Source of the DNA: Candidatus Fermentibacterota bacterium
GTDB taxonomy: Bacteria; Fermentibacterota; Fermentibacteria; Fermentibacterales; JCC-6
Length of the DNA: 64,000 nt
Direction: 5' to 3'
Assembly (NCBI GenBank): GCA_963845085.1
Contig: CAWJQI010000001.1
Coordinates: forward strand, 384,001-448,000
The stretch's first letter is position 1. Every line of letters starts with the position of its first letter. Position numbers and translations under genes: made by a program. The notes beneath the pieces are model-generated. The model was not told the origin of the DNA and did no database searches. It saw only the letters and a list, made by a program, of their open reading frames with translations. Positions 8,956-12,082 of this stretch are shown piece after piece.

Positions 8956-10245
8956 TCATTCCCTTCCTTCCCCGCGGGCAAGCGGACAACCGCCCCCGCA
9001 GACCGTTAACTCGATGCACTCCCTGCACATGGACGGAAGGAACTCCCTGTCCCTGATCCGTACAAAAAGCCTGTCGTTCCATATCTTTTCCCATGGGTCC
9101 CTGAGGAGGTTTCCCGCCCCCTGGAACCAGCTCTGGCACGGGAGCACCGTACCGTCGGGCTCCACGCAGATGTTCATGGTTGCGGCGGTGCACCTTCTGG
9201 CGCCGAGGCCAAGCTGTTCCGGATCGAGCCGGCAGTACCGCGTGGGCGAGTACCAGAGCATTCTCGTCCCAAGGGCCTCACACGCGGCCTTCAGGTCTAT
9301 GAGAAGAGCCTCGAGCCTGACGTCCGGCAGGCTTTTCTCCCCCTGGGACGTGTGGCCGCTGCAGATGACCGTGTTGAATGCCGCGGCGGCGACCCCGAGG
9401 CCCGAAACGAATGCCGGTACGCCCAGGACGGACGCTTCGTTGTCGAGACACAGGGTGGTGTTCGTCACGGTGTGAAAACCGGCGGCGACGGAGTTCCGAA
9501 TTCCCGCAACCGTATTCTCCCACGCGTCCGCCCCGACCATCGCATTGTGCACTGCCGGATCGTTCGATTCGAGAGTGATCTGCACGTAGTCAAGCCCTGC
9601 GGCTCGAAGCTTTTCCACGCGGGCGGGATCGGAGAGGCCGACCCCGTTGGTGAGCAGCCCGGTGACAAGTCCGAGGCTCTCCGCATGCCTTACAAGCTCC
9701 TCGAGGTCGGCCCTGAGGATGGACTCGCCCCCGGTGAAGACCACCTGGGGAACACCGGCATCGGCAAGGCTGTTGATGATGCCCTTCCACGAGGCCGCAT
9801 CAATTTCGGAAACCTGCCTGTCGCCCTTGTAGCAGTGGCCGCACGCCACGTTGCAGCGGTACGTGAGGGCGAGGTCGGCCCTGAAGGGGGCAGACGGGAG
9901 GGTGTCGGGCGTCTCCTCCACTTCGAGGACCACCCGTTCGCCCCTGATCACGGCCTCGAGATCGCTGCTGAAGGCGGTGAAATCAGCCAATGCTTTCTTC
10001 CTCGAAAGGCCGTACCGTCTGGCCAGCCGTTTCGAGGCCTCCTTCGCATCCAGTCCCGACAGCATCAACCAGGCGCAGTCCGCGCCTGTGGCATTCAGGC
10101 GGATGAGTGACGCCGCATTCACAACAAGCACTCCGCTTCCGTCCGGTTCAACCCGGAGGTGCATTCTGGAATCGCCCCTGCGGTAATGGTGCAGCCCGGC
10201 CGGGGCAAGCCTGCCTTTTTCAACGCCGCCGAATATCCCCATCAT
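8956..10245 (-). CDS. Radical SAM/SPASM protein with N-terminal PqqD-like (RRE) domain
   Basis: CNVACGHC (CxxxCxxC), FTGGE, SPASM cysteines CTAA..G.VLPC and CRECIELTVCGGGCP; N-terminal LNATG..W..L..RY..A.AD pattern typical of the PqqD fold. Confidence 0.9.
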   Translation of the reverse strand: MMGIFGGVEKGRLAPAGLHHYRRGDSRMHLRVEPDGSGVLVVNAASLIRLNATGADCAWLMLSGLDAKEASKRLARRYGLSRKKALADFTAFSSDLEAVIRGERVVLEVEETPDTLPSAPFRADLALTYRCNVACGHCYKGDRQVSEIDAASWKGIINSLADAGVPQVVFTGGESILRADLEELVRHAESLGLVTGLLTNGVGLSDPARVEKLRAAGLDYVQITLESNDPAVHNAMVGADAWENTVAGIRNSVAAGFHTVTNTTLCLDNEASVLGVPAFVSGLGVAAAAFNTVICSGHTSQGEKSLPDVRLEALLIDLKAACEALGTRMLWYSPTRYCRLDPEQLGLGARRCTAATMNICVEPDGTVLPCQSWFQGAGNLLRDPWEKIWNDRLFVRIRDREFLPSMCRECIELTVCGGGCPLARGEGRE

Positions 10246-11735
10246 CTACCTCCTCCGGCGCACGCGCAGGCACAGCCGGCACAGGCGCAGGCGCATGCAC
10301 ACCCGCCCCCGGAATGGGACCTGCCGCTCGAGACGGGCAGAGGGTTCACAACGCCCGCGACGCTCTGAGTAAGGCCGCGCACCGAGCTCGCCGCCGCGGA
10401 TTCTATCCTCGAGACAAGGTTTCCGCACGCAGCGGCAACATTGATCGAACTGCCGGTGCCGGCTGACGACACGGGCCATGCCGAGGAGGGGATATAGACC
10501 GGCGATGGAAGCCTCGAGAGTCTTGCCTGCGGCTTTTCCTCGGAAGCAAGGAGCCACTGGAACCTGTCCACGAACACCTCGGCCGCAGTGGTGGCGTCGG
10601 GCGCCTCCTCGAGCTGTTTCCATGCGTTCTTCATCACGCCTGTGTAGTACGCAAGCGTTGTCTTGAGGTTGAAATCCTCCATGTCCTTCGCGAGCTCGCC
10701 TATCATATCCTGGAAGAAGGTTCCGAGGTTCTTCTGCGTGAGCCCCTCCGCGCCTGCGACAAGCTCGAGAAGCTTCTTCTCGTACTCCCGCAACCCCCCC
10801 GGGACAACTCCCATTGGGGTGATCCTGGAGCCGGGTCCCTCACCCGTAACGGTCACGGCGCCCTTGCGGATAAGGCTCCAGACGATGAGCATCAGCACCC
10901 TGTCCAGGGGCTTTTCCATGAGCAGGGCGGCCATGGGGACCGTGAGCCCCCTTCTCACACCCTGCCCCCCCACCCGGATTTTGGGTGGCAGGTACTGCCT
11001 CGATCGCCGCCGGGAACTCCTGATCCCGAAGAAAAGCGGCAGGAAAACGAAGAGAAGCAGGATCAAAAAGACAGATATCGGAGCGCAGCAATCCGTGTTG
11101 AAGAACGTCCCCCCCGACGGCCTCTCAAGGAGGGAACCGGCGACAAGTCCGGCCGGGAACCCTATACCGACCTCGAAGGCCCGGTCAAGCCTGACCGACC
11201 TTTCCCATCGGTAGACGACCCTTCCCTTGTCCACCCATGCACTGTCGAACGGCGCCTCGTGATACCGCACGCTGTCGGGATTGCTGCCCTCTGGAAACAC
11301 CAGTTCGAGGACAAGGTCCGTGTCACCTGTAAGAAGTGATCCGTCGAACCAGGTCGGAGAGAAGTGGAATGATGCCCAGCCCAACTGGTCGTCGTCTTTG
11401 TAGATCCCCCCCCTGCAGATCCCCCGAAACTCGAGAACGCCGGAACCGCCGGGCGGGATGGCCGGGCTGATGGGTATCTCCACCCCGTTGTCGATGTACG
11501 AGGAAATGGATACGGTACAAGGGTTTCCGTTCAGGTCAGCCCACATGTCAACCGCGCTCCAGTCCTGGGTGGGCAGGCCGATGTCGACGACGTCGATCGG
11601 GTCGGCCCCGGGATTGCAGCTGAACCCGATCCGGTAGAACAGGGTGATGGTCTGGTCCTGATTGACCGCGGCCCTGCAGTACATCTCGGGTACGGAAAAG
11701 CTGTAGGAGGCCAGCAGCGCAAGCAGCACTACCAT
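10242..11735 (-). CDS. Signal-peptide/membrane protein (DUF2207-like architecture) with C-terminal Cys-Ala repeat tail
   Basis: N-terminal hydrophobic leader, beta-rich ectodomain, one TM helix, L.RKGAV and YEK.LL segments, ends GGGCACACACAGCACACAGGGR. Confidence 0.8.
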   Translation of the reverse strand: MVVLLALLASYSFSVPEMYCRAAVNQDQTITLFYRIGFSCNPGADPIDVVDIGLPTQDWSAVDMWADLNGNPCTVSISSYIDNGVEIPISPAIPPGGSGVLEFRGICRGGIYKDDDQLGWASFHFSPTWFDGSLLTGDTDLVLELVFPEGSNPDSVRYHEAPFDSAWVDKGRVVYRWERSVRLDRAFEVGIGFPAGLVAGSLLERPSGGTFFNTDCCAPISVFLILLLFVFLPLFFGIRSSRRRSRQYLPPKIRVGGQGVRRGLTVPMAALLMEKPLDRVLMLIVWSLIRKGAVTVTGEGPGSRITPMGVVPGGLREYEKKLLELVAGAEGLTQKNLGTFFQDMIGELAKDMEDFNLKTTLAYYTGVMKNAWKQLEEAPDATTAAEVFVDRFQWLLASEEKPQARLSRLPSPVYIPSSAWPVSSAGTGSSINVAAACGNLVSRIESAAASSVRGLTQSVAGVVNPLPVSSGRSHSGGGCACACACAGCACACAGGGR

Positions 11736-12082
11736 TTGGGAGCCTCCTCGAGCTGATAGGTGCTTCCGCAGAACGGGCAGACCACCATCGCGGTGCCCCC
11801 GATCTCCCTGAGGGCTTCAGCGGAGAGCGTTCCCCCGCAGGAGCGACATTTCAGGCTCTCCATCGAAACATCACCGGAGAGGTCGAGCTCCCGCCGCTCG
11901 ACAATCCGGTGGACCTGTTTCCTGAACCCCAGGAACAAAAGAACAGCGCCTGCCGCAAGCATGACAACACCGTTTATGATTGTTCCGGTGGCGTGGTTGT
12001 ACGACCCGCCAATGAGAAAAAGGATCCCGAGGCCGATCAGGCAAAGCCCTGCCAGCACGATGACAACCTTTATTATCTTCAT
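11729..12082 (-). CDS. Small two-TM protein with C-terminal zinc ribbon
   Basis: Two TM helices then CRSCGG...CPFCGSTYQLEEAPKW; RBS GAAGGT before ATG 12082; overlaps the next gene. Confidence 0.8.
   Translation of the reverse strand: MKIIKVVIVLAGLCLIGLGILFLIGGSYNHATGTIINGVVMLAAGAVLLFLGFRKQVHRIVERRELDLSGDVSMESLKCRSCGGTLSAEALREIGGTAMVVCPFCGSTYQLEEAPKW

Follow-up and report, generated by a model that had tools for sequence, protein, structure and literature searches.

Introduction

What does a peptide-modifying radical S-adenosylmethionine (SAM) enzyme act on when the genes around it leave no room for a precursor peptide? The question is raised by three overlapping genes in a 64,000-nucleotide stretch of DNA, hereafter the window, from a Candidatus Fermentibacterota bacterium (assembly GCA_963845085.1, contig CAWJQI010000001.1, positions 384,001 to 448,000). 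They encode a small zinc-ribbon membrane protein, a membrane protein that ends in alternating Cys and Ala (the carrier), and an enzyme that joins a recognition element for peptides made on the ribosome and modified after translation (RiPPs), known as RRE, to a radical SAM core and a SPASM domain (Table 1). A sequence-only reading of this DNA had proposed that the enzyme modifies the tail of the full-size carrier. Comparative analysis leads us to favour a reading, with a probability of roughly 0.55, in which Cys-thioethers, probably sactionines, cross-link the tail that the intact membrane protein exposes to the cytoplasm. Its components, which are not independent of one another, differ in strength: it is very probable that the tail is the substrate of the enzyme, and there are good grounds both for thioether chemistry, given that substrate, and for a modified tail that stays on the protein.

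Results

Co-occurrence of tail and enzyme

The tail, CACACACAGCACACAGGGR, is composed of C, A, G and R only, contains seven Cys and is preceded by a Ser/Gly linker that is disordered in the structural model. Its codons are mixed (TGT and TGC for Cys; GCA, GCC and GCG for Ala), so that an origin by DNA slippage was rejected, in agreement with the earlier view that the repeat is maintained at the protein level. The same tail ends 120 of the 120 homologues listed (query included), with seven Cys in 105, six in 14 and eight in one, and alignment columns are conserved at 0.97 within the tail versus 0.31-0.63 elsewhere in the carrier. Among 3,364 six-frame open reading frames of at least 200 residues in the genome, the carrier alone has at least six Cys in its last 19 residues. 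This uniqueness, together with the retention of the tail in every listed homologue, argues that the tail did not arise by chance.

A search with the DNA pattern for CACACAGGGR found at least 118 loci in GTDB genomes, 80 of which were analysed with their flanks. We define as type A the carriers that end in the Cys-Ala tail, as type B those of Bacillota, in which a short conserved extension follows it, and as type C those with a (CHSA)n tail. The enzyme lies within 5 kb of the tail in 73 of the 80 loci. Among 50 type A loci, from Chloroflexota, Fermentibacterota, Planctomycetota, Myxococcota, Hydrogenedentota, Thermoplasmatota and Heimdallarchaeota, the enzyme is found in 44 and the zinc-ribbon gene in 41 within this distance; among 30 type B loci (two of which are one contig), the enzyme is found in 29 and an adjacent zinc-ribbon gene in none. 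Of the co-occurrence put forward at the outset as a check on the tail, the part concerning the radical SAM gene holds in both types, and the part concerning the zinc-ribbon gene holds in type A and fails in type B. Three of the seven tail loci without the enzyme are cut by contig ends. When the genomes of five enzyme-less loci were searched, four had an enzyme of the same clade elsewhere, in one case adjoining a second carrier, and the fifth locus is cut 122 nucleotides after the tail. Tail-bearing homologues that mostly lack the radical SAM gene, an outcome that the sequence-only reading had named as counting against it, were not observed.

The association is equally visible from the side of the enzyme. 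Among 80 metagenome loci selected by the enzyme, the tail is present in 67, and in 29 of the 31 that have 3 kb or more to each side; nine of the 13 loci without it have less than 500 nucleotides upstream. In the 70 genomes of the phylum to which the window belongs, the tail occurs in 47, the enzyme in 48 and neither in 22; all 47 tail genomes have the enzyme, and the single extra enzyme lies at a contig edge. One genus of this phylum holds both in 10 genomes and neither in 16. Tail and enzyme have been gained and lost jointly in the phylum. The family to which a Lachnospiraceae locus belongs was covered by 301 genomes, 24 of which have the type B enzyme; the carrier is adjacent in 24 of 24 and the tail present in 23, three of which carry an SSGR variant; the remaining one is cut off. 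The best explanation for these patterns is that the cassette encodes a dedicated enzyme-substrate pair.

A sister enzyme clade with its own tail

The strongest indirect evidence that the enzyme reads the tail is that tail type co-varies with enzyme clade. Across 151 genomes from the class to which a Chloroflexota locus belongs, the scores of the enzyme are bimodal. The clade A enzyme (540-746 bits) occurs in 22 genomes, exactly the 22 with the Cys-Ala tail, and a sister enzyme (315-376 bits) occurs in 26, all without that tail. The CHSA pattern is found in 24 genomes, all within the 26 of the sister clade, and in none of the 22 clade A genomes or the 103 others; these 103 have neither enzyme clade and neither tail, and there are no cross-pairs. 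This distribution suggests that there are two or more tail codes, among them (CA)n-GGGR and (CHSA)n, each matched to its own enzyme clade. Among the 18 sister loci examined of the 26, 13 have a carrier ending in near-invariant (CHSA)n and 17 have a zinc-ribbon membrane protein; the sister cassette (L210:1309-7460, L215:4310-9500, L222:4416-9287 and 10 more of loci L208-L225) comprises the carrier, the enzyme, a 397-residue coiled-coil protein and a 163-residue zinc-ribbon membrane protein. In a quick maximum-likelihood tree of 63 rows, the enzymes of types A and B group with a catalytically dead paralogue described below (Shimodaira-Hasegawa-like approximate likelihood-ratio support, SH-aLRT, of 92), with type C as sister (86). 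This tree and the source names of close homologues suggest a position of the organism among Candidatus Fermentibacterota.

Type B provides a second line of argument. Its enzymes share the active-site profile of type A, yet these loci lack the zinc-ribbon gene and the methyltransferase, and the second auxiliary-cluster motif is present in 0 of 26 of their enzymes, leaving the tail as the only candidate substrate that both types share. Many type B tails have CAHS or CVHS units ahead of the Cys-Ala run, and type B carriers have an extra conserved Gly-Cys past GGGR.

Table 1. Features of the cassette, with positions in the window.
Feature	Position	Strand	Remarks
Zn-ribbon accessory gene, 117 aa	11729..12082	(-)	two transmembrane helices, CxxC...CxxC zinc ribbon, conserved C-terminal E-x-P-K-W
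Carrier gene, 497 aa	10242..11735	(-)	putative substrate; predicted type I membrane protein with one transmembrane pass, divergently related to the DUF2207/TIGR04222 group
Carrier ectodomain, residues ~11-200	11136..11705	(-)	predicted beta-sandwich, ribophorin I/Ost1 and M1-aminopeptidase N-terminal fold; AlphaFold2 pLDDT (predicted local distance difference test) 95-98
Single transmembrane helix, residues ~216-240	11016..11090	(-)	followed by Arg-rich inside segment
Cytoplasmic helical domain, residues ~263-445	10401..10949	(-)	GOLPH3/Vps74-like in the model; replaced in type B carriers
T/V-N-P-x-P motif	10335..10349	(-)	13-27 residues ahead of the first tail Cys; conserved; candidate RRE recognition site
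Cys-Ala tail CACACACAGCACACAGGGR, C479-R497	10245..10301	(-)	putative substrate core; disordered in the model
Enzyme gene, 429 aa	8956..10245	(-)	RRE-radical SAM-SPASM
PqqD/RRE domain, residues 41-97 (Pfam)	9955..10125	(-)	strands and three helices, residues 17-100, in the model
Radical SAM CxxxCxxC (C131, C135, C138)	9832..9855	(-)	invariant in 38/38
SPASM domain	8986..9192	(-)	C352, C370, C407, C410, C416, C420 and upstream C338

The enzyme and its likely chemistry

By its sequence the enzyme is an RRE-dependent radical SAM/SPASM maturase, having the CxxxCxxC motif, the SPASM Cys and an N-terminal RRE, and the Pfam models PqqD (PF05402, 24.7 bits versus a cut-off of 23.4), Radical_SAM (PF04055, 77 bits) and SPASM (PF13186, 35.8 bits) all score above cut-off. 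Six SPASM Cys are present in 38 of 38 type A enzymes and C338 in 37; an eighth, terminal Cys, found in 12 of the 38, is absent here. Of the best 25 NCBIfam models listed, none is matched above its cut-off by the enzyme; its highest scores are those of the NirJ2, PqqE and AhbD models, and it stays below the cut-offs of the sactisynthase models for StsB (NF045574, 82.5 of 625 bits) and SkfB (TIGR04403, 71.9 of 300). TIGR04463 (cut-off 525) has no match at the gene, and its best match elsewhere in the genome reaches 158 bits; the models of the CXXX-repeat system (TIGR04114-04117) are not among the best 25 listed for the enzymes. The closest solved structure is SkfB, whether judged by profile (E 5e-31), by single sequence or by fold. 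A complex prediction for the enzyme with carrier residues 428-497 scored 0.02, which gives no answer and is not used as evidence.

Elsewhere in this genome, two radical SAM/SPASM genes (G000:C5:860256-861572 and C5:238491-239522) score 144-158 bits on TIGR04463, the second match having an internal TGA, and four consecutive radical SAM genes, three of them with SPASM motifs, occur together with methyltransferases (G000:C5:603351-608743).

Precord et al. defined six catalytic-proximity residues (PMC10288494). The corresponding profile is Y-T-(N/L)-T-Q-S in type A enzymes (n=38), with 38 of 38 identical at five positions and the third mostly N, although L in this enzyme; it is Y-T-N-T-Q-S in 26 of 26 type B enzymes and Y-T-I-S-S-S in 18 of 18 type C enzymes. 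The SkfB and PqqE profiles are Y-T-F-S-Q-L and S-S-I-S-H-A, and those given for StsB and CteB are Y-T-I-S-K-L and F-F-T-S-H-Q (PMC10288494). Mapped by motif, the enzyme of the window is identical to SkfB at 3 of 6 positions, to StsB at 2 of 6 and to CteB and PqqE at 0 of 6; type C is identical to StsB at 4 of 6. The profile leans towards a sactionine of the SkfB/StsB type rather than a ranthionine of the QhpD/CteB type. A RiPP-type modification of the tail, as first proposed, is well supported as an inference by the comparative evidence; the thioether type leans away from the QhpD precedent that had been invoked, and the tail may also bind metal, the other option named at the outset. StsA is reported to carry Cys-Gly sactionines formed from CxCxC, and a G-CACAC motif appears among precursors of the StsA/BlaA class in the supplement of the same paper (PMC10288494). 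The profile does not fix the ring pattern, because tails differ in how many Cys they have, in where the inner Gly stands and in the final GG.

It is also possible, if unlikely, that the tail is the substrate of a chemistry other than thioether formation, such as oxidation of Cys, epimerisation of alternating residues or a radical rearrangement of another kind, perhaps completed by a methyltransferase. The strict alternation and variable repeat number would fit a processive, residue-by-residue reaction, the NCBIfam models that score best are not those of thioether synthases, and a class I methyltransferase is encoded at 29 of 50 type A loci. However, the closest solved enzyme is a sactisynthase and the profile leans towards the hairpin sactisynthases, Cys is the constant residue of both the Cys-Ala and the CHSA tails, and the methyltransferase is found at 0 of 30 type B loci and lacks an orthologue in this genome, which is 88% complete and in which the best score is 72.7 bits versus 157-354 for members of the family.

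The carrier and the fate of its tail

The AlphaFold2 model of the carrier (mean pLDDT 88.8) consists of a beta-sandwich, one transmembrane helix, a helical domain and 22 disordered residues at the end. A single stretch reaches a Kyte-Doolittle 19-mer score of at least 1.6, and it corresponds to helix 214-245 of the model. By the positive-inside rule, the Arg-rich segment that follows a transmembrane helix lies on the cytoplasmic side. This segment and the single helix place the tail in the cytoplasm, so that predicted topology agrees with the location assumed at the outset. At the other end, the N-terminal hydrophobic segment (window:11706-11735) has about 10 residues in this genus versus about 20 in other relatives, and more distant homologues start with ordinary signal peptides, as judged by eye.

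In structure searches the ectodomain matches Ost1 and RPN1 (Z 14.7 and 14.5; root-mean-square deviation, rmsd, 3.0 over 177 aligned residues for the first), as well as N-terminal domains of M1 aminopeptidases. The inner domain matches GOLPH3 with weak to middling scores (3kn1, Z 7.8, rmsd 3.9, 157 aligned; 2zih, Z 6.1). The carrier, with this combination of a ribophorin I/Ost1-like outer fold and a GOLPH3/Vps74-like inner fold (window:10401-11705), also occurs in Heimdallarchaeota (L047, L062). Ectodomain and transmembrane helix are kept in types A, B and C, with invariant residues. Carriers of types A and B align by hhalign over the ectodomain only (99.9%), and those of types A and C are homologous over ectodomain, transmembrane helix and inner domain (99.9%, 372 columns). 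Between the inner domain and the tail lies the N-P-x-P motif (conservation 0.91 for N464, 0.96 for P465 and 0.92 for P467), a candidate for the site recognised by the RRE.

A homologue search scored 8,000 candidates, 4,397 of them at E<=0.001, and most homologues listed are 33-42% identical to the carrier. The carrier (P0001) has no match in Pfam or NCBIfam, including PF09972/PF20990 and TIGR04222 (cut-off 43; type C relatives score 19-38 bits), nor do the carriers match the target models of the CXXX-repeat system (TIGR04114-04117) at E 0.1 or 0.01; no solved structure related to it by sequence was found. Relatives were scanned for family matches as single carriers and, for type B, as an alignment; DUF2207 models are matched weakly by 8 of 26 type B carriers, 1 of 3 type C carriers passes the PF09972 cut-off, and the ESM Atlas neighbours of the carrier bear DUF2207. 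Like that family (PF09972/PF20990), the carrier has an ectodomain, a transmembrane helix, a helical cytoplasmic domain and a Gly/Ser-rich end; unlike it, true DUF2207 proteins (L215, L220) have extra transmembrane helices and a Cys-free Gly tail. We therefore regard the carrier as a remote relative of DUF2207 rather than a member. True DUF2207 proteins with such tails lie a few kb from the CHSA cassette at L215:11579-13462, L220:450-2324 and L216:9033-10940. In some genomes, two tail-bearing carriers are present for one enzyme (L192:2225-5910; L119 with L050; L026).

No separate small precursor was found: the cassette lacks the intergenic space for one, in line with the first inspection of the locus, no other plausible CACAC-type precursor, the presence of which had been named as speaking against the carrier as substrate, was found in the genome, and all 120 short tail-bearing proteins listed, of 302 matches, are carrier fragments. 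An alternative, which we consider improbable, is that the membrane protein acts as a giant leader or anchor whose modified tail is cut off and works as a small RiPP. The position of the core behind a disordered Ser/Gly linker would allow this, and the supplement of Precord et al. lists as precursors three tail-bearing fragments, under 'Other Uncharacterized' in group 40, and one CHSA sequence of 65 residues, the analysis described there being confined to groups of more than five sequences (PMC10288494). Against release of the tail, neither a peptidase family nor a cassette-linked exporter was found among neighbours shared by at least four loci, the linker has no conserved cleavage motif, the short tail proteins are fragments of carriers, and all carrier types keep a folded ectodomain with invariant residues. 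Retention of the modified tail on the carrier is thus the outcome we prefer.

Accessory genes

The P-K-W end of the zinc-ribbon protein is near invariant (40 of 41), and 11 of 26 carriers of the clostridial type B, a type represented by L022:2903-5597 and L035:2723-5102, have the ribbon fused in. The zinc-ribbon protein is disfavoured as the sole substrate, given that type B has no adjacent zinc-ribbon gene. The methyltransferase lies downstream of the enzyme (L079:7672-8439, L119:2842-3594) and stays with it where the cassette splits (L120-L122); a link to arsenic methylation was rejected, two methyltransferases having no match to an arsenite-methyltransferase NCBIfam model at E 1e-8. Many Chloroflexota have a dead enzyme paralogue that keeps PqqD/RRE and has CxxxCxxC in 0 of 26 cases; it directly follows the active gene at L008:5333-6472, L063:6408-7583 and 24 further loci, and is present in 63 of 80 metagenome loci. 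It is probably an adaptor.

Repeats of CxC and of His and Cys are typical metal ligands. That the tail is an unmodified segment binding metal or Fe-S, with the enzyme acting on another target of the pathway such as a small molecule that the tail holds or the P-K-W end, would suit such repeats, the near-invariant P-K-W end and the recurrent zinc ribbon, separate or fused, but is the least probable reading in view of type B, which has the same active-site residues and no adjacent zinc-ribbon gene, of the type C zinc-ribbon protein, which lacks P-K-W, of an invariant Ala and a terminal G-R that are more constrained than metal binding requires, and of methyltransferases that match no arsenite-methyltransferase model.

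Discussion

Proposed mechanism

We propose that the carrier is anchored with its beta-sandwich outside the cell and, following one transmembrane helix, its helical domain and disordered tail inside, as predicted by fold and topology. The cytoplasmic enzyme would bind the carrier by way of the RRE, close to the tail, cleave SAM and remove hydrogen from an Ala or Gly of the tail, with C-alpha the most likely position; that carbon would then be joined to the sulfur of a tail Cys, and the reaction would be repeated several times. The product would be a poly-thioether knot, probably of sactionines, kept on the membrane protein as a cytoplasmic binding or signalling end. Zinc-ribbon protein, methyltransferase and dead paralogue may serve as lineage-specific accessories.

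Several observations weigh against this proposal. At four loci with the enzyme (L151, L159, L172, L176), the DNA of the locus contains no tail. Related genomes are not independent, which makes the genome counts descriptive, and co-occurrence speaks for a shared pathway rather than for the direction of the chemistry. The active-site profile agrees with SkfB at half of its positions and was mapped by motif instead of the scoring of the original paper. The supports of 92 and 86 in the enzyme tree, a quick tree only, both fall under the 95 mark. Type A tails vary in length (5-8 Cys) and in the position of the inner Gly, and three Lachnospiraceae have SSGR for GGGR with an unchanged enzyme profile; this variation in Cys number, inner Gly and terminus argues against one fixed Cys-to-Gly hairpin of the StsA kind.

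Relation to known systems

Precedents for protein substrates are provided, by analogy, by CrpC/CrpA and QhpD/QhpC. In Methanococcus voltae, CrpC (TIGR04463) makes ranthionines on the 29-kDa CrpA (PMC13692751). As in the cassette, an RRE-radical SAM-SPASM enzyme with seven SPASM Cys installs thioethers on the Cys-rich C-terminal region of a full-size protein; unlike the carrier, CrpA is described as a protein in which C-X-X-Q/D motifs recur and a leader forms the N-terminus, and CrpC is a ranthisynthase (PMC13692751). The carrier is instead a membrane protein that ends in 19 residues of Cys-Ala tail and has no C-X-X-Q/D repeats, and its enzyme does not match TIGR04463. QhpD similarly forms RRE-dependent radical SAM thioethers on a lasting protein subunit, but the QhpC products are Cys-Asp/Glu ranthionines on a small dehydrogenase subunit (PMC13692751), whereas the tail contains neither Asp nor Glu. 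With the hairpin sactisynthases SkfB and StsB/BlaB, the enzyme shares some proximity residues and, in SkfB, its closest solved structure. The StsA/BlaA precursors resemble the tail in their CxCxC and G-CACAC motifs and differ from the carrier in being short, free peptides in which a GxGxG acceptor strand lies downstream (PMC10288494). TIGR04222 membrane proteins, proposed as MNIO substrates (PMC12452194), likewise have a Ser/Gly-rich, Cys-containing C-terminus and a neighbouring RiPP-type enzyme proposed to act on them; in that system, however, the enzyme class is another one, the tails are predicted to be periplasmic and variable, and a third of the genomes are given as lacking the enzyme (PMC12452194). 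The system seems to work like a RiPP or QhpD/CrpC-type maturase but to belong to none of the families tested.

Our literature search, in which coverage of subscription journals was thin, found no description of the system. The tail motif is absent from three supplements of PMC13692751, and no relevant term was found in the text of PMC12710340. Radical SAM thioethers on full-size proteins have been described for very few substrates, namely QhpC and CrpA (PMC13692751), and we found no paper showing them on an integral membrane protein. A DUF2207 protein has been tied to stress tolerance, no mechanism being given (PMC10457818), and the present system would give a first biochemical handle on DUF2207-related proteins. 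Its breadth is considerable: the carrier clusters number over 4,000 and come from groups that include Chloroflexota, Bacillota, Fermentibacterota, Planctomycetota, Thermoplasmatota and Heimdallarchaeota. As a putative substrate, a 19-residue tail is easily tested, and the matched pairs of clade and tail lend themselves to specificity swaps. More tentatively, and with less confidence than in the mechanism itself, it can be imagined that the carriers form a widespread, receptor-like transmembrane family in anaerobes, both bacterial and archaeal, with Asgard archaea and gut Clostridia among them. Dedicated radical SAM enzymes would rebuild the cytoplasmic ends of these proteins into poly-thioether knots; the tail codes, at least two and each read by an enzyme clade of its own, would be bridged by the CAHS/CVHS units of type B. 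A RiPP-type core would then be a lasting functional part of a membrane protein, for metal or redox sensing or for partner docking, carried on a scaffold with a ribophorin-I-like outer and a GOLPH3-like inner domain.

Gene order and neighbours

All three reading frames described earlier were recovered in the order zinc-ribbon protein, carrier, enzyme. The junction of the first two overlaps by 7 nucleotides, the carrier start overlapping the Trp and stop codons of the zinc-ribbon gene, and that of the last two by 4 (ATGA). The gene hisS (TIGR00442, 299.5 bits, above cut-off) does follow the enzyme directly, an in-frame TTG lying 1 nucleotide past the enzyme stop, but it is not part of the unit: hisS adjoins the enzyme in 1 of 207 loci, which is L058, the closest relative, and this rules it out as a cassette member and makes it a merely local neighbour. 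A search of viral contigs found no relative. Downstream on the same strand, a run of genes at window:3515-6958, whose linkage to the cassette is not conserved in other loci, is headed by a GAF-SpoIIE phosphatase (Pfam) and continues with genes that look, by eye, like those for rubrerythrin, desulfoferrodoxin, ferritin and a carboxymuconolactone-decarboxylase-like protein, which would make it an oxidative-stress group.

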